DNA from: a virus
Taxonomy: Duplodnaviria; Caudoviricetes
Length of the DNA: 36,966 bases
IMG/VR virus record: IMGVR_UViG_3300037586_003684
Span: 1-36,966 of that record
Direction: 5' to 3' (one strand)
The position numbers and the translations under genes were made by a program. Shown piece by piece: positions 587 through 29,738 of this stretch. A model generated the notes under the pieces. The model was not told the DNA's origin. It was given only the letters and a program-made list of their open reading frames with translations, and searched no databases. The stretch's first letter is position 1; each line of letters begins with the position of its first letter.

Positions 587-1234
587 ATGGCAACTTTCCA
601 AATCCCCGGTGAAATCATCACCTCTGTCACCGCTCTCGGTGGCGGTGCGCCCCCGTCCGGCTACTACGCCGCAAAGATCGAGAAGATCGAACCTCACCCG
701 TCGCGCGCCACGGCTCGTCGGATGACCCTGTCGTTCCAGGGCTTCTCCTGCACTGACTGGCTGAACACCCCCTACGATGTCGAAGGGAAGGCTATCGCCG
801 GTCTCAACGAGAAGCAGGTTCGCGGCATGGTTGCTGCGATCAAGAGTGTCTTCCTGTCCGCTGGGTACACCAACGAACAGATGTCTCAGGGAATCAGCGA
901 CGACTGGCTGATCGACAAGAGCGTCTGGCTCGAGTGGCATGCCGCCAAGGATTTGGGGGCCACCTACGGAAAGATCGACCGATACCTCACACAGGTTTCC
1001 TTCGACACTTTCCAGGCCGACGGATCCAAGCCGGCAGTTGCAGGAGCTGACGCTGTCAGTTCAAGCAGTGCCTCTGCAGCCGTTCCACCTGCGGTCGCTG
1101 CTGCAACACCGGCTCCGGCAGCTACTGTGGCTCCGGCTCCTGTTCCTGCACCTTCCAATGGTGCCTCTCAGACGACGATTGGTGGGGCTGTTCTGCCTCC
1201 TCCGCCCGTCGGCGCGCAGGGCCTGACCCAGTAG
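587..1234 (+). CDS. Probable single-stranded DNA-binding protein (DUF669-like) with Ala/Pro-rich tail
   Basis: N-terminal PPSGYYAAKIEKIE matches the DUF669-type P-x-G-x-Y start; lies between the ATPase and the DNA polymerase; low-complexity C-terminal tail. Confidence 0.55.
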   Translation: MATFQIPGEIITSVTALGGGAPPSGYYAAKIEKIEPHPSRATARRMTLSFQGFSCTDWLNTPYDVEGKAIAGLNEKQVRGMVAAIKSVFLSAGYTNEQMSQGISDDWLIDKSVWLEWHAAKDLGATYGKIDRYLTQVSFDTFQADGSKPAVAGADAVSSSSASAAVPPAVAAATPAPAATVAPAPVPAPSNGASQTTIGGAVLPPPPVGAQGLTQ

Positions 1235-1278: not shown

Positions 1279-1297
1279 ACCCTTTCTCCGGTGCAGT

Positions 1298-4003
1298 TTG
1301 ACTTTCAATCCCCAAGAACACGGCGCAAAGTGCGAGGTGTGTCCGCTCGGACCTCGTGGCTGCTTCAACGATGAGGACTGGCGCCCTGTCGGTCCAGAGA
1401 TTCATGAAGGTGCCACAGTTCTCGCTGTCGGAGAGAGTCCGTCGCACGAGGACACCCACCACCAGCGTCCTTTCATGGGTCGAGGCGCATCAGAGTGGGC
1501 GACAGCGCTGGCTGTGATCTGCAAGAGTCGGCCCGACATCGACCTCACCAACGTCATTGCGTGCAAGCCTCCTGGTCAGGCCAGTGGTGCCTGGACACGG
1601 ATGACGCGGAAGCTCGACCGACTGAACAAGTCTCGACAGAGCAAGGGGCAACAGCCTCACCCTCACCCGATGACCTGTTGCCTGCCGCACTTGCACAGTC
1701 TGGCTGCCAAGTACGAGAACATCATCACGCTTGGTCGTATCGCGACACTCGCCCTGACTGGGCAGAACAAGAGCATCTTCTCTGTTCGCGGCGGCCCTAT
1801 CTACGTCGATGAAGACTGGCAGACTTCCGGGGAGGGCCGGCGCGTCTTTCCCACCGTGCACCCGGACTACATTACTCGAGCGCCGTCCTGGCGCAGTGTC
1901 CTGCACGCAGACCTGGGTAAGGCGTTTCGCTGGTTCACCGGAGCACTCAAGTGGACAGACCCAGACATTCTCTGGCGTCCATCGCCCGATGATCTACGCA
2001 CCTTTCTTGCGCAGCCTGCACCCTACTGGGCATACGATGTGGAGACTGATGGAGTCGAGCCATTGGAGTGCGGGCTGCGCACCATCGCCATTGCCATCCC
2101 TGACCTGGATAGCAAGGGCCGAGTCGTCAAGGGTGGCCGGTCTGTTGCCCAGAACAGTTATGCCGTGGGCATCACGCTCCAGTCTGTGCGAGGCGCTCGG
2201 TGGCTCTGCCCCGAAGACGAAGCCGAGATCAAGGACATCCTGTGCAAGGCGTTCACCGACGGGCGCACCTGGGTGGGGCACAACGCGGGTAGCTTCGACC
2301 GGATGGTCATCGAGAACCACCTCGGTGTCACCCCCGCGCCTCTCGTCGATACCCTCTTCTCCACGCGGTTCCGTGCGCCAGACCTACCGAAGGGGCTGAA
2401 GACAATCGGATCCATCCTGACAGACGTGGAGCGGTGGGAATCCACAGAGAAAGGCGCAAGCATCTCGACAGGCACCACCGATGACGACGAGCTCCTCCGA
2501 TACAACTGCATCGACACCGTAGTCAACGCGCGCATCCTGCCCCCGCTCATCGAAGCGACAGACTTCAACGGTGCCTTCAGACAGCTGCCCGCGTGGGCGC
2601 GGCCTGCAAGCTGGCCCGACAAGCCCTGGAACCTACACCAGGTCGACCATGCCACCCAGGACATGTGCGTGCAGATGCACAAGGCAGGTGTCTGGATTGA
2701 CCAGACTCGTCGTCGTCAACTCGAGGACCACTACACGGTCTTGGTGGGTCAACGTCAGAAGTGGCTCATCGATGAAGCCCGGGGATGGACGCAGACGTTC
2801 AACAACCCGGGTAGCGGGGACCAGGTACGCAACCTGCTCTACGACATCTGGTCACTGGGCATCCCTCCACAAATCGATGCGCGTGAGTTCTACACCGAGA
2901 CGGGTCTCCCAGGAACGGGGGATGCAGTCATCCGAGCGCACCTCGCTGCAGACAATGTCACTGCGAATCAAGCGACGTGGCTCAAGCAGCTGCGTGTGTA
3001 TCGGCGGGAAAAGAACAAGATCCTGGGCACTGTGCTCATCCCCATGCGCAGACGAGATGCAGACCCCGTGAAGGGCATCGTGTTCGAGGACGGTCGTGTC
3101 CGCAGCAACTGGAACGCACACGTCACCAGTGTGGGCAGGCTCAGCTCCAGTGGTCCGAACCTACAAAACATCGGCAACCGCAAGGGTCAGGCTCCGCTCA
3201 AGAGCATCTTCTCCGCACCTCCTGGTCGAATGTTCATCGGGGCGGATCTGGACCAGGCCCACTTGAGAATCACCGCATGCTACTGGCGCATCCCGATGCT
3301 CCTCGAGTGCTTCGCCAGCGGACAGGACCCACACAACACGCTGGCGTGGAGCGTGTTCGGCGACAAGTTCAAGAGCGCAGACGGCTGGGGCCCAGACGGA
3401 TTCAGCCTTCACCGCAAGCCCCCGGGCGGCCAGGCCAAGTCCATGCGCGACATCATCAAGACGTTCAGGTACGCATCCATCTACTGGGCGTCTCCCGCAA
3501 CGGTCTGGCAGGTGCTCACTTCGACGGAGACGGATGAGGGCGATCTCCCCTACCTGGGATTCAGTCTGCGAGATGTTCGGTTCATCCACGATGCGTGGCT
3601 CGAGGCAGAGCCCGAATGGATGAAGGCATGGCAGTCAATGCTCAAGCTCTACCGCCAACAGGGATTCATGGACGAGCCTGTGTTCGGCAGACGGTCGGGC
3701 CCCCTGAGCGATGGCAAGAAGAACGAAGTGGTCAACTACCCGATATTGAGTGCCGAGTCTGCCGTCATGCGGATTGCCGAGCAGCGTCTGATCGAGCAGT
3801 TCCCCTATGGATTCGCAGGACCCGGCACGGGACTCATCCACCAGTGCCACGACAGCGTTGCCATCGAAGTGCCCGACGAGGGAGAGCATCAGCTCGAGCA
3901 GTGGCGCAAGCTCGTCGAGCAGTGCATGACCGTCGAGGTTCCCGGGTGGGTGGTCACCATGACTTCCGAGGCCGCAGTCGGTAAGACTCTGAAGGAGGTC
4001 TGA
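1298..4003 (+). CDS. polA: Family-A DNA polymerase with N-terminal family-4 uracil-DNA glycosylase-like domain and 3'-5' exonuclease (SPO1-type architecture)
   Basis: UDG motifs CEVCPL, VGESPS, PFMG, TNVIACKPP, FPTVHP. Exo motifs YDVET, GHNAGSFD, YNCID. Pol motifs GRLSSSGPNLQNI, DLDQAHLR, KTFRYASIY, HDS. Start placed at TTG 1298 because the upstream in-frame TTG (1235) runs through the hairpin. Confidence 0.92.
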   Translation: MTFNPQEHGAKCEVCPLGPRGCFNDEDWRPVGPEIHEGATVLAVGESPSHEDTHHQRPFMGRGASEWATALAVICKSRPDIDLTNVIACKPPGQASGAWTRMTRKLDRLNKSRQSKGQQPHPHPMTCCLPHLHSLAAKYENIITLGRIATLALTGQNKSIFSVRGGPIYVDEDWQTSGEGRRVFPTVHPDYITRAPSWRSVLHADLGKAFRWFTGALKWTDPDILWRPSPDDLRTFLAQPAPYWAYDVETDGVEPLECGLRTIAIAIPDLDSKGRVVKGGRSVAQNSYAVGITLQSVRGARWLCPEDEAEIKDILCKAFTDGRTWVGHNAGSFDRMVIENHLGVTPAPLVDTLFSTRFRAPDLPKGLKTIGSILTDVERWESTEKGASISTGTTDDDELLRYNCIDTVVNARILPPLIEATDFNGAFRQLPAWARPASWPDKPWNLHQVDHATQDMCVQMHKAGVWIDQTRRRQLEDHYTVLVGQRQKWLIDEARGWTQTFNNPGSGDQVRNLLYDIWSLGIPPQIDAREFYTETGLPGTGDAVIRAHLAADNVTANQATWLKQLRVYRREKNKILGTVLIPMRRRDADPVKGIVFEDGRVRSNWNAHVTSVGRLSSSGPNLQNIGNRKGQAPLKSIFSAPPGRMFIGADLDQAHLRITACYWRIPMLLECFASGQDPHNTLAWSVFGDKFKSADGWGPDGFSLHRKPPGGQAKSMRDIIKTFRYASIYWASPATVWQVLTSTETDEGDLPYLGFSLRDVRFIHDAWLEAEPEWMKAWQSMLKLYRQQGFMDEPVFGRRSGPLSDGKKNEVVNYPILSAESAVMRIAEQRLIEQFPYGFAGPGTGLIHQCHDSVAIEVPDEGEHQLEQWRKLVEQCMTVEVPGWVVTMTSEAAVGKTLKEV

Positions 4004-4456: not shown

Positions 4457-6382
4457 ATGGCAAAGAAACAAATCCCCCTCCACGTTCAACAGATCAAGTC
4501 CAACCTCAAGAGCATCGACGGCGAGGCCTGGCATGTCGATCTCGGAGACAAGACACTCATCGTCGGGCCGAACGGCAGTCACAAGTCTGCCATCGCCCAG
4601 TCTCTCGAGCTGGCAGTCAGTGGTGCCGCAGACGACATCGTCGGACGCACTGCCGTGAAGTCAGGAGACACCCTGCTTTCGACAGCTCACGAGGATGCTC
4701 TCTGGATCCAGGCGAACCTCTCCAACGGGGAGATCTCCTCTTTCAAAGTACAGAGAGAGGACGAGAAAGTCAAGCGCCCGGCTCATGTCAGCAACAGCAC
4801 GGCTGTCCTTCCCCTGCGGGATGTGAAGGCCGCACTGGCGGGCTCGACGTCCACGGCCATGCGTGCCTTCTTCACGTGGGCCTGCGCCGACATCAGTGAG
4901 GATGCGTTCATCGTCGAGTCGTCTCCAGCCGTGAACATCACCTCGTCGCAGGATGTGCAGGAGGCTCTCGACGCCTACGAGATCTACTCGCGTCACCGCA
5001 AGGACAGCCCTGCTGACCGACTGCTCTCGCTGTACCAGTACACGGGTGAGCAGGTACGGAGTCGGTCAGGCAAGATCAAGGCGCTCGAGGCGAGAACCGT
5101 CGTCCTGCAGCATACGCTCTTCGATAGCTGTCCTTCCGACGAGGACATCGATGGAGCCAAGCAGCAACTGGTGCGCGCCGCGAGCGCGAACAGTGCGCCC
5201 ACCCAGGAGATCGAAGCCGCAGAGGATGCGGTCCGTCTGTGGACCGAGCGAGTCAGGAGTCTGGACGCATCTCTCGTCTCCGACTCCATGGCGAACTGCG
5301 CGAACTCCATTCTCACGACAGCGACATTCGAGCACCTGCAGAGTTGTCCTATCTGTGCCTCCCCGGTTGGATTGGAGCACCTGCGCGCATGTCAGAGCCA
5401 CTACAGCGGACAGGCGGACGCAGAGACCGAGGCCATCAGCGGAGACATCGAGACTGCCAACGAGAACCTCGTGGCATGGAAGACACACCTGGAGAAGCTG
5501 CGTAGCCAGTCTGCCGTCGATAGCAGCTCGGTCATTCGTGCTGCCAACGAGTTGACCGACATGGTCGCCAATCGGAAGCAGTGGGATGAGTTCTCCCAGT
5601 GCCGTGAAGACGTCAACGCACTTGAGGTAGAAGTCGACAGCTTCGGTCGAGCGAAGAAGGGCGTCGAGGTCATCATCAAAGACGTCCTCGCACAGCACAC
5701 GATGTCATTCGTGGAGTCGGTGAACCGGTTCCTGCCCAAGGGGTACGTCTTCGACATGACCGTGCACCCGAAGCTGTCGGTGGGTCTGGTTCGTAACGGT
5801 GCTCTGCACACTGCCCTGAGCGGTGCCGAGTGGGTGACTGTGACGGCTGCCATCGCCATGGTCGCATCCTCTTCGATGGATGCCGAGCTTCGGGTCATCG
5901 TGCTCGAGGACCGTGCGCTCGACCCCGACACACTGCGCGGCCTGCTCAAGACGTTCAGTGCGTTCAATGGTCAGGTCGTCATCACCAGCGTGACCAAGCC
6001 GAAGGGTCGCCCCTTCAAGGCCTGGAAGGTCATCGACCTGTACAAGGCTCCGCTGTGCGATGCTCCAATAATCAGCGCTGCTCCCGAACCTGACGCTGCC
6101 CCAGAGCCCGAAGCAGAGCCCGAAGCAGAGCTCCCCCCTGCGCCACCGACGGAGCCCGTGGTGGTCAAGCGGCGCAAGCGGTCAGCCATCAAGGCACCCT
6201 CCTCGAGGAAGATCCTCAAGGGCTTGGGCTACACCGACGCTGACCTGGACGTCATGACGCCAGATACTGCGGTGAGCATCATCAAGGAGGGGCTGCTCGC
6301 CAAGGACGTGGACACGCACTCGGACGGCACGGTCACCGTGATCCTACGCCCGAACGTACACCAGCTTCCTCGCCTCCAGTGA
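4457..6382 (+). CDS. Rad50/SbcC-like (SMC-family) ATPase
   Basis: Walker A GPNGSHKS, coiled coils around a CPIC zinc hook, signature LSGAE, Walker B VIVLED; extra Pro/Glu-rich linker and C-terminal domain. Confidence 0.85.
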   Translation: MAKKQIPLHVQQIKSNLKSIDGEAWHVDLGDKTLIVGPNGSHKSAIAQSLELAVSGAADDIVGRTAVKSGDTLLSTAHEDALWIQANLSNGEISSFKVQREDEKVKRPAHVSNSTAVLPLRDVKAALAGSTSTAMRAFFTWACADISEDAFIVESSPAVNITSSQDVQEALDAYEIYSRHRKDSPADRLLSLYQYTGEQVRSRSGKIKALEARTVVLQHTLFDSCPSDEDIDGAKQQLVRAASANSAPTQEIEAAEDAVRLWTERVRSLDASLVSDSMANCANSILTTATFEHLQSCPICASPVGLEHLRACQSHYSGQADAETEAISGDIETANENLVAWKTHLEKLRSQSAVDSSSVIRAANELTDMVANRKQWDEFSQCREDVNALEVEVDSFGRAKKGVEVIIKDVLAQHTMSFVESVNRFLPKGYVFDMTVHPKLSVGLVRNGALHTALSGAEWVTVTAAIAMVASSSMDAELRVIVLEDRALDPDTLRGLLKTFSAFNGQVVITSVTKPKGRPFKAWKVIDLYKAPLCDAPIISAAPEPDAAPEPEAEPEAELPPAPPTEPVVVKRRKRSAIKAPSSRKILKGLGYTDADLDVMTPDTAVSIIKEGLLAKDVDTHSDGTVTVILRPNVHQLPRLQ

Positions 6383-8314: not shown

Positions 8315-8506
8315 GCATCTCGCACCTCGGCGTCCGCCAGCAAATCCACCAGGACGCCGGGGTGTCTGCGCCGAGGCACTCACGCCTATGTGAAATCGAC
8401 TCGCGTGCAGTGGTAATGAGAGCCCGAACAGGATAGACTTCAGAGGCTGCGGCATCACTGTCTCAGCCCCGGTAGTTTGACTAATCCCACCCCCGGAGGT
8501 GTTGCT

Positions 8507-12769: not shown

Positions 12770-12807
12770 GTCGGCTCCCCTTGTGTGTCTGTCTGGGTGG
12801 TGTAGAG

Positions 12808-12836: not shown

Positions 12837-12941
12837 GTAAAAAATGAGGGGTCAAAAGTGATACGCGTTGACGTGTCAAATAATAAGCGGACAAAATCTG
12901 TCCGACTTGGCCCAAAGTCCAGGGCAAACCTGACTTATGAC

Positions 12942-13344
12942 GTGGTACACCTGGCGGTATCATGGTGTACCAGTCGAAAAGCCAAGGAAGAACCTGGGTT
13001 ATCACCCGTTGAACCTACCCTGCGTGTGACCCGAAGTGGTACCGCCCCGATCTAGGTAGAACCTGGGTTATCGGGCGGTGGTACACCTGGTACACCATTT
13101 TTACAGTACATAGACGTATATGAGAGAACTGCTTGCGGTTGGGGGTCTACTAATTTCATCCGTGTTGGTATCGTATCTGTTTGTACTCACTCCAAGCCTA
13201 CTACAACCGTGAGCGCTGACCCTATGACCTGTTCTCAGAGGTGTACCAAGTGTACCAAGTGTACCAGTGATTTAATTGCTTCCTGATCCCAGTGCTTTAG
13301 AGTGTGACCGCAGACGGAATGTCGGGTCACAGGTGGTACCAGTG
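12942..13344. repeat. Iteron-like repeat cluster, putative replication origin
   Basis: TGGTACAC/GTGTACCA units in both orientations (12942, 12964, two in tandem at 13078-13096, three at 9-bp period 13241/13250/13259, variant at 13332) around an AT-richer core; 15-bp direct repeat AGAACCTGGGTTATC at 12989 and 13058; non-coding. Confidence 0.6.
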
Positions 13345-13365: not shown

Positions 13366-13905
13366 ATGTCAGACGAAATAATCGACATGACGGACGAGGT
13401 GTCACCGCTGTCCCAGCCGCTTGAGCTGGTTCCGAGTACGACCGTGGAGCCGACGGAGCCAGAAGTGGTCGGTATGATCATCGAAGAGGCGCAGTTTGCG
13501 AGCGAGATCGAACGTCAGGCTGCTGCGATCCGTCTCCTCGAGGCAGGATATACGATCCGTGTGGTTGCCAGGAAATTAAGTATGCGGCCTTCAACGCTCT
13601 GGAGGTGGGCCCAGAGCGAGGATGCACGCGATGCGATGGAGAAAGGGCGTCAATTACGCGCACAAAAGATCGGCCAGGAGCTTGAACACGCAGCCGAGTG
13701 CGCAATTACGACATTAATTGACGTGTCTGCAGACGATGCAGTTAATCCGAGGGACCGAGTGCGCGCCTCGGAGGCGATATTAGACCGGTGCGGCATGGCA
13801 AATGTCGCAAATAACGACATTAACACTGTCGCTGTCGCTGTTGACATCGACTTTGACGAGCGATTGGCCAGGATAGTGGCCGGATCGCGCCCGCAGGAGA
13901 AATAA
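13366..13905 (+). CDS. terS: Probable terminase small subunit (HTH)
   Basis: N-terminal HTH (AIRLLEAGYTIRVVARKLSMRPSTLWRW), then A..TL..V, RVRASEAILDRCG and a C-terminal V.VDI strand typical of phage TerS. Confidence 0.65.
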   Translation: MSDEIIDMTDEVSPLSQPLELVPSTTVEPTEPEVVGMIIEEAQFASEIERQAAAIRLLEAGYTIRVVARKLSMRPSTLWRWAQSEDARDAMEKGRQLRAQKIGQELEHAAECAITTLIDVSADDAVNPRDRVRASEAILDRCGMANVANNDINTVAVAVDIDFDERLARIVAGSRPQEK

Positions 13906-14183
13906 TGCACGGATCCTGTCCCCCCGGCGCACACGATGCGCTAATTAATGCGCGCATGGACGCCGGACACCCGGATTTCACCGGTCCGACCCTCATTATC
14001 GCGAAGAAACAGGCGATGGAGGGGCCAGAGGCCGAGTCTGCGCCCCAGGAAGCCGGTAAAAGCGCCGATCAGCTCCGGCAGATGGCCTCAGACCTCCTCG
14101 AGACTGCCGCAGAGCAGTCAGCACGCGCTGACGAGCTCAATGCGCTGGCTGATTCGCTTGATCAGCCCCAGCACGCCGAGTAG
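13905..14183 (+). CDS. Hypothetical protein (92 aa, coiled C-terminus)
   Basis: TAATG overlap; CAGGAG RBS. Confidence 0.65.
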   Translation: MHGSCPPGAHDALINARMDAGHPDFTGPTLIIAKKQAMEGPEAESAPQEAGKSADQLRQMASDLLETAAEQSARADELNALADSLDQPQHAE

Positions 14184-14186
14184 TAC

Positions 14187-14275
14187 AGAGAAAACGGCGC
14201 CCCGCCGACTCGCACAAGGGGTAAAGGCGAACCTGCGGGGCGCACGAGTAGTTTGACTGGTCCAATCCCCGGACC
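14187..14275 (-). ncRNA. Small antisense regulatory RNA (~88 nt, two hairpins) complementary to multiple phage translation-initiation regions
   Basis: Own promoter (14282-14310). 5' hairpin GGUCC-GGGGAUU-GGACC begins at the predicted +1. Second hairpin GCGCCCCGC.GGUUCGC-CUUUACCCCUUGU-GCGAGUC.GCGGGGCGC (G-U pairs only on the minus strand) is followed by UUUUCUCU. Loops match many start regions (see findings). Confidence 0.8.
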
Positions 14276-14281
14276 ACCACC

Positions 14282-14310
14282 AATCTACTCTGGCGTTATC
14301 ATGCTGTCAA
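14282..14310 (-). promoter_or_regulatory. Near-consensus sigma70 promoter of the sRNA
   Basis: TTGACA (14310-14305)-17-TAGATT (14287-14282); the -35 lies in the last codons of the upstream CDS. Confidence 0.85.
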
Positions 14311-14703: not shown

Positions 14704-14761
14704 GCTTGCTCCCCTTGATTGAGCGTACGAACCCGACTTCACGCCGGGGCGCTCTGATTTA

Positions 14762-15785: not shown

Positions 15786-15808
15786 GGCGGCTCCCCTTGT
15801 TGGTGTAT

Positions 15809-16906: not shown

Positions 16907-16935
16907 GGTTACCCCTTGTTTGAATGTCTACAGGT

Positions 16936-16964
16936 AGATTATTCCGTGGTGGTATGAATGTCCA
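16936..16964 (-). promoter_or_regulatory. sigma70-type leftward promoter
   Basis: TGGACA-17-TAATCT; spacer carries CCACCACGG. Confidence 0.65.
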
Positions 16965-17148: not shown

Positions 17149-17358
17149 CTATACGAGTCCGAGTGCGAGCAACCACGACGGGCAACCGCCGAACGTGGTA
17201 CCGTCCGGTTCAATGGGCGAACCGTCCAGTGCTTCGCACACACTATCGAACACCCACGCGCGTAGGGTTTCGAAGCTGGGTGTATCGTATCGGGTACCGC
17301 GCCATTCGATCCACGCGGGCAGACCGTCATCGTTGATAGGTCCCTGTGTTAGTTCCAT
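17149..17358 (-). CDS. Hypothetical early protein (69 aa; P..E.L..W..DSVCEA.DG..IEPDG....G.PSWL)
   Basis: CGGAG RBS in a repeated leader; motif pattern seen in small phage proteins. Confidence 0.7.
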   Translation of the reverse strand: MELTQGPINDDGLPAWIEWRGTRYDTPSFETLRAWVFDSVCEALDGSPIEPDGTTFGGCPSWLLALGLV

Positions 17359-17361
17359 GGT

Positions 17362-17556
17362 TCAGTCTCCGTTGGTGGTAGCGTTGTAGGTTGCGCGGAA
17401 TGCGTCGCACCGCGCCTTGTAATCTTCCCACGACTCACCGTCGTGGGGCGGCCCGGGCAATGCCGGGCAATCGTGTACGTTGAAGTCGAGTGCGGGCATG
17501 ATTGCCCCGCATCCCGTGCAGCGCACGGCTCCAGTACTGTCTCCGTTCCCATTCAT
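17362..17556 (-). CDS. Small Zn-finger-like early protein (64 aa)
   Basis: CTGC...HDC; same 20-nt leader as the next gene. Confidence 0.65.
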   Translation of the reverse strand: MNGNGDSTGAVRCTGCGAIMPALDFNVHDCPALPGPPHDGESWEDYKARCDAFRATYNATTNGD

Positions 17557-17559
17557 GGT

Positions 17560-17646
17560 TCAGTCTCCGTTGGGGTTGTTGGGGTAGAGGTAGGCGCCCC
17601 ATGCGAGCCAAAGCCCGCACAGAGCGTAGACACACAGCCACGTCAC
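17560..17646 (-). CDS. Membrane micropeptide (28 aa, MTWLCVYALCGLWLAWGAYLYPNNPNGD)
   Basis: GTGA overlap with the upstream stop; ends in the repeated leader. Confidence 0.45.
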   Translation of the reverse strand: MTWLCVYALCGLWLAWGAYLYPNNPNGD

Positions 17647-18214: not shown

Positions 18215-18293
18215 GTTTTCTCCGGGGATTGGATGGTTGACACGGTAGCCGTATCGACAGGTGCACGGGCCGACCCGTGCAACCATCGGGCGG

Positions 18294-18524: not shown

Positions 18525-18563
18525 GTTTTCTCCGGGGATTGGATAGGCTTAATGCCTACACCC

Positions 18564-19083: not shown

Positions 19084-19836
19084 ATGGCATGCGGAATCTG
19101 TAGAAAGCCCGGACACAACCGACGAAGCTGCGCGGCTGTTGCAGCTGTTGCGGCTGCGGAGACCTGGCCGTTGCTCACGGAGCACTCTCTAAACAAGCCG
19201 AAGCCGGTCGAGGTCAGTCCAGCGTCGGTAGCCTCTCAGCTCACGGACCTGACGGGCCAGCGCTTCACCTGCGAGGGCGCGCTGATGAAGTTACTGAGTC
19301 GAGAAATCGTACTCACGCTCGAGGACGAAGTGATGAGGCGGCTCGACGCCCAGGTCGCGGTCGTGGCCCAGGGTGCAGCTGCCAGGGAGTTCGGCATCGA
19401 GGTGACCCGCGAGGTGACCGCTCGAGTCGCGCTGCTCAGGGGCCTGGACGTCATGGAAGCAGGCGCCGGGGTGTCGAATGGCAGACCTGACCAGGCGAAC
19501 CAACCCGCCCAACAGCTTCACGAAGAAAAAGCTGAAGAGGATGCAGTGGTTGATCGTAACACGGATGGGACCATCAGGACCCCTCCGGGCTGGGAACTGT
19601 GGAAGTCTGCCGTTCCGGAGGAGCAGATGTCTGTCGATGACTACTACTCCAGCAAGGGCTGGGGACGGTGGTGTGGTCAGGTGGGCAACGAGACCATCGT
19701 GTTCTACTGGACCAACAAGGAGTCCCTGCAGGGCGTGACTCCGTACACGGAGTCGGATGAGACGGGCAAGACCATTATCGTGCAGCCGACTCCATGGGGT
19801 GAGGGGCACATCGTTCCGGCGGGCTGGGCGAGTTGA
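19084..19836 (+). CDS. Protein with N-terminal CCHC zinc knuckle (250 aa)
   Basis: AAGGAG RBS; MACGICRKPGHNRRSC. Confidence 0.7.
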   Translation: MACGICRKPGHNRRSCAAVAAVAAAETWPLLTEHSLNKPKPVEVSPASVASQLTDLTGQRFTCEGALMKLLSREIVLTLEDEVMRRLDAQVAVVAQGAAAREFGIEVTREVTARVALLRGLDVMEAGAGVSNGRPDQANQPAQQLHEEKAEEDAVVDRNTDGTIRTPPGWELWKSAVPEEQMSVDDYYSSKGWGRWCGQVGNETIVFYWTNKESLQGVTPYTESDETGKTIIVQPTPWGEGHIVPAGWAS

Positions 19837-21188
19837 TGCGCTTTGTCGAGCTGTTTGCCGGAGCAGGAGGGATGTCACTCGGACTGCAGGCTGCGGGGCA
19901 CGAGCACCTGCTCGGCGTCGAGTGGGACAAGGACGCTCACACGACCTACGTGGGCGGAGGATTCGAGGGTGTTCGTGGAGACGTCAGGGACGTTGGGGTC
20001 GTTGACCGCATCGTCGCCGCGTGTGGAGGAGAGCCCCTGGACCTGTTGGCGGGCGGTCCTCCTTGTCAGGCGTTCTCGAATGCGGGGAAGCGGGGTGCGG
20101 CACACGACGACCGCAACGGCTGGCCGTGGTTCCTGAGTGTCCTGCTCAAGCTCAAGGGACAGGGACTCGGGCCCACCTGGTTCGTCTGTGAGAACGTCAA
20201 GGGGATGCTCTCGCATCGCAAGAAGGCACACGGAGGCAAGTACACGGGCGTGGTCGCGGATGACGTGATGGCGTGCCCACGATGCTACTGGGACGAGGTC
20301 TTGCTGCCTGCGTTCAGAGACGTCTTCGAGTGGGTCGACTGGTGGGTCCTGAACGCAGCGGACTACGGGGTTCCTCAGCGGAGGCACCGAGTATTCCTCG
20401 TGGGTGGGCCCAGACGCATCGAGCCGCCGATACAGACGCACAGCCAACAGGCCCTGGTTCACGACAAGTGGGTGAGCAGGTCGTACTGGGAGCGCCTTGG
20501 CATCAATGCAGTGGGTGCGCCCTCCAAGGAAGAACGGCGCGTCTTGAAAAAGATGAACGGTGTGACACCACAACACGCACCGTGGAACACCATTCGACAG
20601 GCCCTCGGCCTGGAGCAGGTCGTCGGTGGCGGGAGGAATCCTCAGAGCCCGGAGCTGGCAGAGAAGCGAAACTTCAGAGACCTCACAGACGAGCCTTCTG
20701 TCACCATGGCGGCTCAACAGGTGGGCAATCGCGGTCCCTGGTTCTCTGCCATTCGACACCAGAGTCCGTCTGCAGGAACGATTCAACATCCTGTCGATGC
20801 GCTCTGCCCCACGGTCGGGGGGAAGGGTGTGCTCTATGCAGAGGCGGAAAAACAGGAAGGCACGCACAACCCCCACTACCACGCGCATCGACTCGAGATG
20901 CTGGACAAGCCGAGCGTAGCTGTCTGCGCCACGGAGGTGAAGGGTGCGCGCCACCAGAAGTGGACCCCCGATAAGTCTCCGATGCGGGCCAGTGACCAGA
21001 TCTTTCGCGCAACGGGACGGAGGCGACTGACTGTCGAGGAGTGTGCACTCTTACAGGACTTTCCACAGGACTGGGAGTTCAACGGGACGAAGGCTTCACG
21101 TTACATGCAGGTAGGAAACGCAGTCCCGTCCAGGCTTGCCCGAGCGGTCGGTCTGGCTATCGCCAAAGGCGACGTTGATGGGAAGTAG
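19836..21188 (+). CDS. dcm: C5-cytosine DNA methyltransferase
   Basis: Motifs LFAGAGG, GGPPCQ, ENV, QRR.R, R.LT..E...LQDFP, VGNAV; no cognate endonuclease adjacent. Confidence 0.93.
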   Translation: MRFVELFAGAGGMSLGLQAAGHEHLLGVEWDKDAHTTYVGGGFEGVRGDVRDVGVVDRIVAACGGEPLDLLAGGPPCQAFSNAGKRGAAHDDRNGWPWFLSVLLKLKGQGLGPTWFVCENVKGMLSHRKKAHGGKYTGVVADDVMACPRCYWDEVLLPAFRDVFEWVDWWVLNAADYGVPQRRHRVFLVGGPRRIEPPIQTHSQQALVHDKWVSRSYWERLGINAVGAPSKEERRVLKKMNGVTPQHAPWNTIRQALGLEQVVGGGRNPQSPELAEKRNFRDLTDEPSVTMAAQQVGNRGPWFSAIRHQSPSAGTIQHPVDALCPTVGGKGVLYAEAEKQEGTHNPHYHAHRLEMLDKPSVAVCATEVKGARHQKWTPDKSPMRASDQIFRATGRRRLTVEECALLQDFPQDWEFNGTKASRYMQVGNAVPSRLARAVGLAIAKGDVDGK

Positions 21189-25609: not shown

Positions 25610-28600
25610 CTATCCATACCTCGAGGAGTCATCCAGGGCTCCGGCGAGGGAGGCTTGAATGTCAGGATTCTTGGGGTCGAACATGCCCTTGTTGAGATAG
25701 CTCTTGATCTGGGTGGGCTCGAAAGCGATGTAGGAGTCCCCACCACCCTCAATGATATTGCGGTAGACGACACCGTCGTAGCCTTGAGCTTTTAGCGCTG
25801 CTTTGGCTTGTGCACCAAGTTCTGCGATGATGCGCTCACGTAAATCTGATTCTGTGTAATCTTCTGCGAGACTAAGAGCTTGGTTGTTTACATCTTCGCG
25901 GAACTCAATGTCAGTATCGTATTTTTTCCAGGCAGCGTCTATCGTCTCATCTGTGTAGTCAAACTGACGCCAAAAAGTATCTTCTATTAAAGCGTCATCG
26001 TTGATTTTTTGCCTTTTCGCTAACTGGAGTAACCCTTCCTCGGTCATTCTAGCCGGGTTTTTAATAGATAAGTAAACGGGGTAGACTCGTCCTGGGGCGT
26101 CTGTCTCTGATCGAAGTCGCTGCCACTTGAGACCACCGATTCCGGCAAATGTGTCTGCTACATGGGGGCTCGTCGCAAAGTGAGCCCCCATGTAGGCGTT
26201 TGGATCACCCGAGCCAGAAAGGATTGTCGCCTCGTCTACGTCTATCCAGGGAGGCCCCTCTACGGAGAACTCGCTGAAATCGACTTTTGCAGTTGTGCCA
26301 TGGTAGACGACCAACGGCTTTCCAGCATCGTCTACCACTGCCGACTCACCGAACCACTTCTGGAAGTAGGGAGAGTTTGTCCCCATCTCCTGCCACAGCC
26401 GCTTGGCCTCGGCAGCCTCGCCGAGCATCTGCTTGGCCGCAGTCTGGGCAGCCTGGTCGCCTTCCTGGGCAGCCTTGAAGGTCTCGGTGACCTTGGGCGC
26501 GATTGTGGTTGGGGGTGAGGGGAGGTCGCGCACCCCTTCGGCGGCTGATCGAGCGCTCACTTTCGGGCCGAGCTTTGTTCGGACTGCCGCTTTGTGCGCT
26601 CCGGCAGAGACACCCAGCTCGTGTGTCGCCTTCATCACCTCGGCAAGAGCGTTGCGGTCCTTCAAGCTTACGCCGAAGACATCGGCAACAGCTGCGAGGA
26701 GCTCGTTCCAGACTGTCGTGATTTTGCCGCCCGTGGTGGGGATCTCGATCTCCTTCAGTATCGCCTGGAACTCTGGATTGGAGAACGCTTCTGCGACGAA
26801 CTCCTCAGCGTCCGTGAATCCGTATTCGCCGAGAGCGTGGGGTGAACCCTTCCAGCGAGGATACTGCACGGGACCGACGCCGTACTTCTCGAGCGGCACC
26901 CCCTTAGGAGACATACGAGTCGAGGTTATCCGGGTACTTAGTATATCTTGTGTCTGCTTATAGATTTCTTCGATTCTGTCGGCAGCAGCGAGAGCGCGTC
27001 GACCTTCTGCGGTGCTCTTCAAAGAGCGCAAGATCTCGGGTATACCTGTTCGTCCATCATAGTTGGCTTCTCCTCGGTTCATTTTGGCGGCGTGGAGGAC
27101 CCGAGCGGTGCCCCCATGTAGCAGCTCATGGATAACTGTAGAGAAGCCCTTCAGGTGACGTGTTTGGTTTATGACGACGACGTCGTGATTAACGCTATAC
27201 CAAGAGGTGCCCCGTGCTAGTTTCCTCTTCTTCTCGTCCGCCAGGTGTGCCGCCACGCTACGAGGCAGGTCGTCGAGGGTGCCGAACACAGATTCACGAT
27301 ACTTGGCTGGCGCATCAACGACTCCTTCTACGTCGTTGACGACATGGACGGGTATATCGTCTACGCCGGGGAAGCCTTTGAGATACTTCGCGACGGCGAC
27401 TTCTGGGTCTCCGCGCCCATACATGCCTACATAGACCAGCTTTTGGGGTTGTTTGATTATTTCGTCGAGTAGGGTATTCGAGTCGGTCACCATGTAGCGG
27501 GGGCGGGGATCTTGGTCCCGGTACGGCGTGGGCGATTCATCTATATACTCCGTCTTCGTTTTGACTGTCTGGGTGATCCAATCATCGGCTTCGTGGTACG
27601 GCTCCCAACGCAGGGAAGCCTCCCACGGATCGCGGGGCTCGTACTTAGGATCGCGGAGCACATCGGGCGGTGAGGCACGAACCGCCGCCTCGGCTACGGG
27701 TGCGGCAGGCGCTGCTTCTGCGCTTCTTTTTAACTCACGGTATTCATTTTTAAGCATCGCTCGCTTGAATCCGTAAACTCCTCGACTCGGCGGAACTCCG
27801 GTCCGAGAACTGGGGAGAAGCGGCGTACCATCTACTGAGATACCTGTGCCGAATGTGACGAATCTGCTTCCGTCTTGCCTCTTGACCATAAGCTGTGTTG
27901 TTGGTTTGGCTCCTTTTGCGGGAGTCTTGTCGTATGGGGGAAATCGGTCTACTGGACCAAGGACTTGAACTTGTTCGTCGCCGAATGCTGCCTCGACTGG
28001 ATATTCGCGGGTGTGCATTTTATCGAGGGCCGCGTCTGCTTGTTGCTTGTATTCGGCTTTGGTCGCCTCATCGAGATCTTCCCAGTAAGTGACGCCCGGT
28101 TCGCGTGGTTTTGCTCTGGCTTCGAGGAACTCATCCCAAGAAGGTAGCTTCTTGGCTGCACGCGCGGCAGGCGCCACCTCGGCTGCTTCCCTCGCAGCTT
28201 TGACGATGGGCCCGACAGGCGGTCCGACAACTGCAGCCATGCCGAGACCTGACAGGGCAGCCATGGCTACGTCGCCTTCCTCGATGGCTTTGTTGAAGTA
28301 GTCTGCGTCGATGGCGTATCCGAGGGACGGGCTTGCGGCTCCCCCGAGTACTTCAGTCCACGCCTTTGCGCTGGGTCCGATCTCGAACTCTCCTTCGAGA
28401 CCATAGCGCTTGGGCCACTCCCCGGGCGGGCGTTCGTCGAGGGGCGTTGCCTCTACCGATTCACCTGTGGTGGCTCGTCGATAGTGCTCTGGGCTGGCGT
28501 AGACACCCTCGGGGCCGGGCGCGTCTGCGACGGAGGGCTCCTCGGAGATCTCCTTCTTGCGCGACTCCATGACGGCTCTCCAGGCGTCTCGCTGCTTCTG

Positions 28601-28972
28601 CGTCATGTCCGGGGGCTCTTTCACCGCACCGCTGGGGCCCGGCAGGTCCACTGCTGTCGGAGGCGTGACGCGCTGCACCAGATTGCCGTACTTGTCGTAG
28701 ACCTCACCCTCCTGGCGCGGCCTCTTGTAGCGCCGAAGGTCTGAACGTATCTGGTCGGCTTGTTCGCTGGTCAGCCCGGGGGCACTGTCCCACTCCGGCC
28801 TTTGAGCCAGAGTTTCGGCTGCGGCTTCGCGGCGAGCATCTGCGAACGCCTTCTCCTCTGTTTTCTTCGCAGGTACGAATGGCTTGACCTCTGCGTCTTC
28901 CTCTTTCGCCGCATCTTCGCGCAGCTTGCGAAGTCGCAGGTCGAGGTCAGGGGTCAGGCCATAGGTGCTCAC
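25610..28972 (-). CDS. Polyvalent protein: zincin-like metallopeptidase plus C-terminal ADP-ribosyltransferase (ART-PolyVal-like)
   Basis: HELLH (27130-27116) with downstream EEFVAEAFSNPEF; F.KWFG.S.VVD..GKPLVVYHGT (26305-26294), G.HF, VYPVYL.IKNP, GYDGV.Y.N, YIAFEPTQIKS..N.G.FDP. Confidence 0.8.
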   Translation of the reverse strand: MSTYGLTPDLDLRLRKLREDAAKEEDAEVKPFVPAKKTEEKAFADARREAAAETLAQRPEWDSAPGLTSEQADQIRSDLRRYKRPRQEGEVYDKYGNLVQRVTPPTAVDLPGPSGAVKEPPDMTQKQRDAWRAVMESRKKEISEEPSVADAPGPEGVYASPEHYRRATTGESVEATPLDERPPGEWPKRYGLEGEFEIGPSAKAWTEVLGGAASPSLGYAIDADYFNKAIEEGDVAMAALSGLGMAAVVGPPVGPIVKAAREAAEVAPAARAAKKLPSWDEFLEARAKPREPGVTYWEDLDEATKAEYKQQADAALDKMHTREYPVEAAFGDEQVQVLGPVDRFPPYDKTPAKGAKPTTQLMVKRQDGSRFVTFGTGISVDGTPLLPSSRTGVPPSRGVYGFKRAMLKNEYRELKRSAEAAPAAPVAEAAVRASPPDVLRDPKYEPRDPWEASLRWEPYHEADDWITQTVKTKTEYIDESPTPYRDQDPRPRYMVTDSNTLLDEIIKQPQKLVYVGMYGRGDPEVAVAKYLKGFPGVDDIPVHVVNDVEGVVDAPAKYRESVFGTLDDLPRSVAAHLADEKKRKLARGTSWYSVNHDVVVINQTRHLKGFSTVIHELLHGGTARVLHAAKMNRGEANYDGRTGIPEILRSLKSTAEGRRALAAADRIEEIYKQTQDILSTRITSTRMSPKGVPLEKYGVGPVQYPRWKGSPHALGEYGFTDAEEFVAEAFSNPEFQAILKEIEIPTTGGKITTVWNELLAAVADVFGVSLKDRNALAEVMKATHELGVSAGAHKAAVRTKLGPKVSARSAAEGVRDLPSPPTTIAPKVTETFKAAQEGDQAAQTAAKQMLGEAAEAKRLWQEMGTNSPYFQKWFGESAVVDDAGKPLVVYHGTTAKVDFSEFSVEGPPWIDVDEATILSGSGDPNAYMGAHFATSPHVADTFAGIGGLKWQRLRSETDAPGRVYPVYLSIKNPARMTEEGLLQLAKRQKINDDALIEDTFWRQFDYTDETIDAAWKKYDTDIEFREDVNNQALSLAEDYTESDLRERIIAELGAQAKAALKAQGYDGVVYRNIIEGGGDSYIAFEPTQIKSYLNKGMFDPKNPDIQASLAGALDDSSRYG

Positions 28973-29312: not shown

Positions 29313-29738
29313 TTAGGTGACTGTCCGGCCTGCCCAGCTGAAGCAGACTCGCATGGATGCACACTTGAAGTTCCAGGCCTGGCAGTAGCCGAGCTCTCCG
29401 CCCTCGATGGCTCGTTCGGGGTCACCCTCTCCACCGAGTCCGGTCTCGATGCACTGGAGCATCTGCGGAGTCTGGATGAAGAAGGTGCAGCCCTCGCAGC
29501 GCATCGACATCACGTTGTCGACGGTGTCGTTGAACTTCTGGGCATAGATCTCCCAGAACGGCAGGTTCTCACCTACGTCGTCGAGCTGTGGATTGACGGG
29601 ACCGTACTTGGCTTCGTCGATGGCTTTCTGACGATGCTTCATGTTCAGGACGATGTCCTGCGTCACCCGAGGGCACCTGTCCGTCTCACGGGCGTCCCGC
29701 TTCGCTCGGTCGATGATCTCGTGTGATGTTCTCGCCAC
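29313..29738 (-). CDS. Cys-rich conserved phage protein (141 aa)
   Basis: YGP.NP, CEGC.FF, M..CI..G, G.LGYC...FKCA..R.C..W. Confidence 0.65.
   Translation of the reverse strand: MARTSHEIIDRAKRDARETDRCPRVTQDIVLNMKHRQKAIDEAKYGPVNPQLDDVGENLPFWEIYAQKFNDTVDNVMSMRCEGCTFFIQTPQMLQCIETGLGGEGDPERAIEGGELGYCQAWNFKCASMRVCFSWAGRTVT

Follow-up and report, generated by a model that had tools for sequence, protein, structure and literature searches.

The uncultured phage studied here carries a putative small RNA (sRNA) gene that is a conserved element of its family, and the comparative support for RNA–mRNA pairing is strongest at the replicative helicase. We found a sequence unit with complementarity to mRNA starts, enrichment of the complementary sites at starts, covariation in a stem, and covariation between seeds and targets, clear for the helicase and less so for the polymerase, AAA_24 and SNF2. 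Judged from these comparisons, the sRNA very probably pairs with the helicase, polymerase and early-gene mRNAs. That it represses their translation, as a delayed negative feedback in non-integrating (probably lytic) growth, is the reading we favor with moderate confidence.

The window, by which we mean the whole stretch of DNA analyzed (36,966 nt), represents about half of a ~70-kb tailed phage genome. It encodes a UDG-PolA polymerase, an SbcC/Rad50-like ATPase, a DUF927/Cch-type primase-helicase, a terminase, a portal and a capsid protein. Gene starts were found with a simple purpose-written caller, and those of the window were curated by hand to give 51 starts. Cultured phages are remote (22–24% identity in the polymerase, 25% in the capsid), and many relatives are present in IMG/VR and metagenomes (polymerase identity 52–66%). 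BLASTN of the sRNA locus against GenBank phages gave 0 matches, and gene 16906 used as a query found no relatives. The polymerase carries an N-terminal uracil-DNA-glycosylase domain and a TTG start at 1298 that was set by homology (gene 1298–4003); the copy of one relative (G027:27983–30871) has one internal TGA. The window also encodes a C5 cytosine DNA methyltransferase (19833–21188, plus strand) and a 1120-aa protein with an ART-PolyVal ADP-ribosyltransferase domain (25610–28972, minus strand), much of whose gene differs in the near-identical strain G029. A long non-coding stretch with repeated GGTAC/GGTACAC motifs (12900–13330) adjoins the terminase-small-subunit (terS)-like gene and is a possible packaging site, genome end or origin.

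The sRNA gene lies on the minus strand. The initial annotation had proposed a TTGACA-17-TAGATT promoter and an intrinsic terminator, and both are present: the sigma70-type promoter (14282–14310; −35 at 14310–14305, −10 at 14287–14282) scores 10/12, and a program-made list places a terminator-like site at 14207–14195. A promoter of the same type occupies the syntenic site in relatives. From the fold, the complementarity and the homologues, we predict an RNA of ~89 nt, with approximate ends, within 14187–14277. It would consist of a 5′ hairpin (14259–14275) whose loop (14270–14264, GGGGAUU) is seed 1, a single-stranded linker (14244–14258, AGUCAAACUAC) that is seed 2 by its complementarity, and a terminator hairpin with a U-tail (14187–14243) whose loop (14226–14214) is seed 3. 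The two-hairpin fold has an energy of −42.3 kcal/mol (z −2.0; equaled by 6 of 200 shuffles). The sRNA is identical in the near-identical strain records L036 and L214, and Rfam gave 0 matches to it at E≤1. We rejected a coding role because there is no ATG and the length varies freely among homologues. The locus is thus laid out as a stand-alone non-coding gene with its own promoter and intrinsic terminator, as is the case for trans-encoded base-pairing sRNAs.

The terS-like HTH gene and a 92-aa gene (13366–14183, plus strand) converge on the sRNA gene and served as a synteny marker. Behind these two genes, on the opposite strand, relatives carry the same layout: first a promoter, then a 5′ hairpin and a linker, in some cases a further hairpin in the middle, and last a terminator hairpin whose loop is pyrimidine-rich. 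We recovered 47 distinct sRNA sequences of this layout, with lengths of 66–105 nt. The 93 distinct terS loci comprised 52 with the unit, 30 with no unit within 1.1 kb and 11 that were too short; 20 of the 30 unit-less loci form one clade (support 100 in a quick tree). Because the unit detector accepts only loci that have a terminator and either a promoter or a linker motif, the conservation of these parts is partly by construction. A looser genome-wide detector fired 0–7 times per record, and an exact-motif scan returned 58 loci, mostly chance coding matches that we left out of the counts. Among 26 aligned homologues, a set that excludes the window's sRNA, the terminator stem is 96.2% paired and shows two-sided changes in 8 of its 10 pairs. 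None of 500 shuffles reached this covariation, which also greatly exceeds that of slid controls.

Two covariance models built without the window's sRNA (R1 and R2, the latter with only 4 base pairs) missed it at E≤1 and at E≤5. Its family membership, as read from sequence, rests on synteny, layout and pairwise similarity: it resembles the sRNA of L225 (z 5.0) and seven others (8 of 46 homologues at 0/300 shuffles) and is not similar to those of G038 or G010. For G027, G032 and G035–G037, which have no syntenic unit, a helicase-first search gave no clear substitute. Other promoter–terminator units do occur in the clade that lacks the syntenic sRNA (G036 at 54215(−) and 48796(−), L172 at 20095(−), L176 at 19724(−)). 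In L278, a tRNA-like sequence follows a promoter ~1.2 kb downstream from terS (seen by eye only).

We scanned both strands of the window for pairing with a purpose-written, IntaRNA-like program that extends seeds, takes its stacking energies from ViennaRNA, simplifies the loop terms and accounts for local accessibility. The best four sites outside the sRNA gene itself were the helicase leader (−18.1 kcal/mol), the polymerase start (−13.3), and the leaders of genes 18214 (−12.6) and 18524 (−12.0). They were followed by positions +16 to +43 of late gene 23562 (−11.2) and the ribosome-binding site (RBS) of gene 16906 (−11.0). Although start windows make up 5.2% of both strands, they contain four of the five best sites, five of the best ten and seven of the best twenty. 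No shuffled sRNA (of 400) and no natural homologue (of 46) reached this enrichment. The complementarity to distant mRNA starts, short and imperfect as it is, thus exceeds chance. Individual motifs behave in the same way: outside the sRNA gene, AATCCCC is found five times, CAAGGGG seven times and the linker 9-mer complement three times, with five, four and two of these sites, respectively, in start windows in the pairing orientation and 0 in the opposite one. A fifth seed window (loop positions 54–60) gave 1 and 1 for the two orientations.

All the complements listed by the initial annotation at the helicase, the polymerase, 18233, 18543, gene 587, 4471–4477 and the loop-2 sites were found in place. 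The strongest covers the leader and Shine-Dalgarno (SD) sequence of the primase-helicase (ATG 8507) at 8471–8497 on the plus strand (22/26 paired over 8472–8497; 0/400 shuffles as good), a target that covaries and recurs family-wide. Next is the TTG start (1298) of the UDG-PolA polymerase (1295–1317, plus strand; 0/400), where the duplex at 1295–1313 consists of 9 bp, a 2-nt bulge and 10 bp including one G-U. On the minus strand, the RBSs of early genes 18524 (18531–18543; 0/400) and 18214 (18221–18233; 1/400) are each complementary at 13 of 13 positions, and both sites belong to one duplicated 22-nt leader. Loop 2 is complementary to the RBS of gene 16906 over 11 nt (16909–16919, minus strand; 8/400). 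Probable targets are the RBS of gene 15785 (loop 2, 8 nt; 15793–15800, minus strand; 13/400) and codons 5–7 of the SbcC/Rad50-like ATPase gene 4457 (4471–4477, plus strand; 15/400). The first codons of gene 587 are a possible target (593–609, plus strand; 1-nt bulge; 16/400). This gene is unannotated, and its earlier label "ssb" has no PHROG or Pfam match behind it.

The remaining sites are weak. The loop-2 sites at the RBSs of genes 14703 (7 nt; 14711–14717, minus strand; 33/400) and 12769 (9 nt; 12777–12785, minus strand; 59/400) lie individually within chance, and a doubtful late start at 29738 scores as well as 14703 (33/400). Gene 12642, once named as a target, does carry CCCCGGA, but its predicted pairing does not reach −6 and the same motif precedes gene 29298 among the late genes. 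Of the "about 11 targets" first claimed, 4–5 are strong, ~3 are moderate and the rest are weak. Eleven starts do score at or below −6.5, but as many are found with 70 of the 400 shuffles and with 6 of the 46 homologues. The promoters at 16964, 15839 and 12836 were read by eye and are absent from the program's promoter list. A second duplicated RBS module (17358–17375 and 17556–17573, minus strand) has no match to the sRNA. The near-identical strain G029 has the same sRNA and the same RBS motifs before different early genes (568, 6413, 7420, 8433).

We then scored 23 sRNAs against orthologous start regions and compared own-genome pairing with 20,000 permutations. The phages' own sRNA ranked on average 2.9 of 23 at their own helicase leader (n=22). 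None of the 20,000 permutations did as well in any of three sets: all 22 phages, 12 phages with one per seed type, and one 12-member clade. With one phage per seed type, the polymerase gave 27/20000, AAA_24 2, f7 474 and the Rad50-like gene 618; SNF2 gave 5137, gene 587 14885, terS 13577, f14 7233, f19 4742, f27 6249 and f12 7089. Twelve genes were tested, and the helicase, the polymerase and AAA_24 survive correction; the SNF2 RBS reached 29/20000 after a post hoc start correction. No own-genome advantage was detected in any set for terS, f14, f19 or f27, and the permutation test led us to reject these four, gene 587 and f12 as family-wide targets. The design removes kinship only partly; most control genes showed no own-genome advantage, and f12 gave 515 within the clade. 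Seed and target thus change together at the helicase, the polymerase and AAA_24, and post hoc at SNF2, but not at gene 587. This is the mirrored change that the initial annotation had predicted. The idea of a stand-alone RNA gene whose product acts in trans, through two seeds, on start regions is thereby supported.

Sister phages illustrate the specificity. G023 and G025 each prefer their own leader at the helicase (−10.7/−10.9 versus −7.5/−8.0) and at AAA_24 (−16.5/−16.2 versus −6.3/−7.4). Matching linker–target pairs are AGUCAAACUAC and GUAGUUUGACU in the window, UUGAAUAGUC and GACUAUUCAA in G023, AUUAAACAGUC and GACUGUUUAAU in G025, and CGAAACAUC and GAUGUUUCG in G009. Loop or linker matches to an RBS are CCCCUUGU and CAAGGGG in the window, GUUCAUCC and GGAUGAAC in G016, GUUCACUCC and GGAGUGAAC in G015, and GUCGUUUUCCU and AGGAGAACGAC in G025. 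The helicase start was among the top 3 of 124–147 windows in seven of eight complete genomes, G038 being the exception. When the search was run blind from the helicase leader (~74–104 intergenic loci), the sRNA ranked 1–4 in 8 of 13 genomes; of the remaining genomes, four placed it at 7, 22, 24 and 40 and one did not rank it. Enrichment across many targets is clear for the window and for G016, fair for G023, G038 and G015 (4–6/100 shuffles) and weak in G025, G010, G014 and G009 (18–34/100 shuffles); the signal is weak in one clade.

The missing half of the genome is covered by G031, which is 98.8% identical to the window over 4.9 kb and provided an out-of-sample comparison. The AAA_24 leader there holds a 12/12 linker complement (7/100 shuffles as good) and the SNF2 RBS a loop-2 site (18/100), both modest when taken alone. 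The best site outside the replication block scored −5.9 (15/100).

The enrichment and covariation tests largely refute the reading that the matches reflect chance and SD complementarity, that is, a C-rich operon terminator facing purine-rich duplicated RBS modules. Chance does suffice for the weak sites, the two 13/13 sites are a single duplicated leader, and a 7-mer test ranked the own sRNA high in only 4 of 12 relatives. But natural homologues of like build do not reach the top-rank enrichment, the duplexes at the helicase and the polymerase involve sequence other than the SD, and the seed–target covariation is specific to replication genes. We consider this reading scarcely credible.

Could the motifs instead be oriented, stoperator-like DNA sites, or mRNA sites bound by a protein regulator such as an XRE protein, the inverted copy at 14187–14310 being a decoy or by-product? 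Asymmetric stoperator sites are known (PMC9283540), many of the sites found here lie directly behind promoters, and the phage has an XRE-HTH gene (see below). Counts of G-U versus A-C oppositions in the duplexes do not discriminate (62:47, p 0.2; window helicase duplex 0:3; other replication genes 196:293; controls 249:204). We hold this possibility to be highly improbable: instead of one consensus there are three motif classes, and only the three exposed parts of a single RNA unite them. The locus also comes with a promoter of its own and a terminator stem that covaries, and some G014-type duplexes need several G-U pairs.

The window's sites cover the SD, the start or the first codons, which fits repression. 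The linker site of many relatives sits at −55 to −25, immediately 3′ of a strong leader hairpin that has a U-rich tract behind it. In helicase leaders such as those of G010 (62393–62513) and G015 (54349–54474), and more weakly in the window (8430–8470), we observed a separate sigma70-type promoter, then a strong hairpin whose U-rich tail borders the sRNA site on its 5′ side; this hairpin and tail are a possible attenuator or ribosome standby element. At the helicase leader, the sRNA might affect where transcription terminates or how the leader folds, by attenuation or activation, rather than ribosome access. P4 CI is described as acting via termination (PMC4825925), and PreS as acting on dnaN (PMC12197685). 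Against such a role, the SD lies within the duplex in the window and in G016, many relatives have a second seed over +2 to +11 or over the SD, and the other targets are RBSs without such a hairpin. We regard it as quite unlikely. Repression by pairing upstream of a start has a described precedent (PMC7534054).

We wondered which lifestyle the sRNA would serve. No tyrosine integrase, serine recombinase or ParA (PF00589, PF07508, PF13614) was detected in 21 records, 18 of them ≥90% complete, in a search that detected its positive controls. The hallmarks of a temperate phage, an integrase or plasmid partition, are thus found in 0 of 18 near-complete records, which leaves other maintenance routes possible. 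An XRE-family HTH gene is present in 17 of the 21 records (16 of the 18 near-complete ones). In G031, it lies at L090:8528–8833, divergent from the SNF2-helicase operon, and an identical protein is encoded on a 68,885-bp contig. The original proposal of a protein-free master repressor of lysogeny is not supported by these two results. The accompanying remark that there is no CI-like gene is true of the window but not of the phage, whose missing half carries the XRE-HTH gene; with this gene in 16 of 18 records, control need not be protein-free. Classical lysogeny is unlikely, and of the roles first suggested, early-gene shut-off is likelier than a lysogeny repressor.

The same pairing might serve a carrier state or superinfection immunity in the manner of P4 CI: the helicase would be kept low, the genome would persist unintegrated and the seeds would define immunity groups. 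The universal target is indeed the replicative helicase, and seeds differ quickly from one lineage to the next, with the targets altered to match. The sRNA dose would scale with copy number; in plasmid antisense control, the RNA dose scales with copy number. The missing integrase, recombinase and ParA genes and the widespread XRE-HTH gene speak against it, as does the lack of a close prophage among GTDB species (best matches 31–46% identity). A carrier or immunity role is, on this evidence, unlikely.

Our preferred reading, delayed negative feedback on translation, can be outlined as follows. The sRNA would be transcribed from a sigma70-type promoter, the same type that drives its early targets, and its end hairpins would stabilize it and let it accumulate. 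Its loops and linker would pair over the SD, the start, the first codons or a U-rich stretch 25–50 nt upstream, and this pairing would block translation initiation. Synthesis of the helicase, the polymerase and the early proteins would become a self-limiting pulse scaled to genome dose, because the sRNA dose would rise with genome copies. The divergent XRE-HTH protein may add transcriptional control. Because related phages show joint changes in the sRNA and in the helicase leader, the sRNA likely damps translation of its targets together.

How does such an RNA compare with known systems? P4 CI RNA (seqA/seqC) is described as pairing with two separate sites and thereby repressing the replication genes of the phage that encodes it (PMC4825925). 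The likeness is that of a phage RNA aimed at its own replication genes. However, P4 CI is processed from the leader that it controls and causes termination in lysogeny, whereas the sRNA has its own promoter and terminator, as predicted from sequence, its strongest targets are 4–13 kb away and its sites cover translation starts of several operons. It has no Rfam match at E≤1 and is not predicted to be processed from its own operon leader, which sets it apart from both P4 CI and P1 C4. The C4 antisense RNA of P1/P7 is described as limiting expression of a phage gene (PMC8198154, PMC12197685). C4, P22 sar and lambda OOP each have a single regulator locus as their target (ant, cII), within a lysis–lysogeny circuit; here, the predictions point to the helicase, the polymerase and early genes, and the phages show no integrase. 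Cis-encoded antisense RNAs (sar, OOP, plasmid copy control) lie opposite their target with a long perfect complement, an arrangement not found here.

With its own promoter, short imperfect seeds and a terminator, the sRNA resembles GcvB, SgrS and IstR as well as the phage RNAs PreS, VpdS and 24B_1. Trans-encoded sRNAs are described as binding at the RBS or at upstream enhancer or standby sites (PMC7534054). The PreS, VpdS and 24B_1 type, as described in PMC12197685, acts on host mRNAs, Hfq or one antirepressor, whereas the predicted targets here are the phage's own genes. The passages of that 2025 review considered here describe no phage sRNA with such a regulon. Nor did we find a description of one among the freely accessible publications that we searched.

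Cluster K mycobacteriophages carry start-associated sequences (SAS), an oriented motif at non-structural gene starts with a single inverted copy in four genomes, for which the published account left the binding factor open (PMC3203893). The SAS is one fixed 13-mer, with no RNA gene in the passages that describe it; here, seeds are lineage-specific, and three different motif classes take the place of the one conserved ~13-bp consensus of stoperators and SAS. In Mycobacteriophage Angelica (34.6 kb examined), we counted 17 SAS in one orientation and 1 inverted. The inverted copy (L321:33560–33680, plus strand; HM152764 about 58,560–58,680) covers the 10-nt loop of a strong hairpin. This hairpin lies behind a second one, with a z of −6.4, inside the hypothetical gp92 (read rightwards; one genome). 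We treat it as a candidate anti-SAS RNA, as a lead only.

Known phage regulatory RNAs, so far as the literature reviewed here describes them, target either host mRNAs or a single phage regulator. Here, a phage sRNA would govern a regulon made up of the phage's own early and replication genes, and its seeds would have co-evolved with the ribosome-binding regions in at least a dozen seed types. Early shut-off and the control of replication would thereby gain an RNA layer. Such a regulon would also explain repeated start motifs in phage genomes, offer a testable answer to what binds the Cluster K start-associated sequences and provide a natural set of orthogonal sRNA–leader pairs. More tentatively, and with considerable doubt on our part, the sRNA may be the main temporal or copy-number governor of this integrase-less phage family, silencing the helicase and the first genes of early and replication operons, with seeds and RBSs rewritten together in each lineage into RNA-coded exclusion groups. 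If the same logic explains Angelica's inverted SAS in its hairpin loop, phages would use this strategy generally, and a cultured model would be at hand in which to test it.
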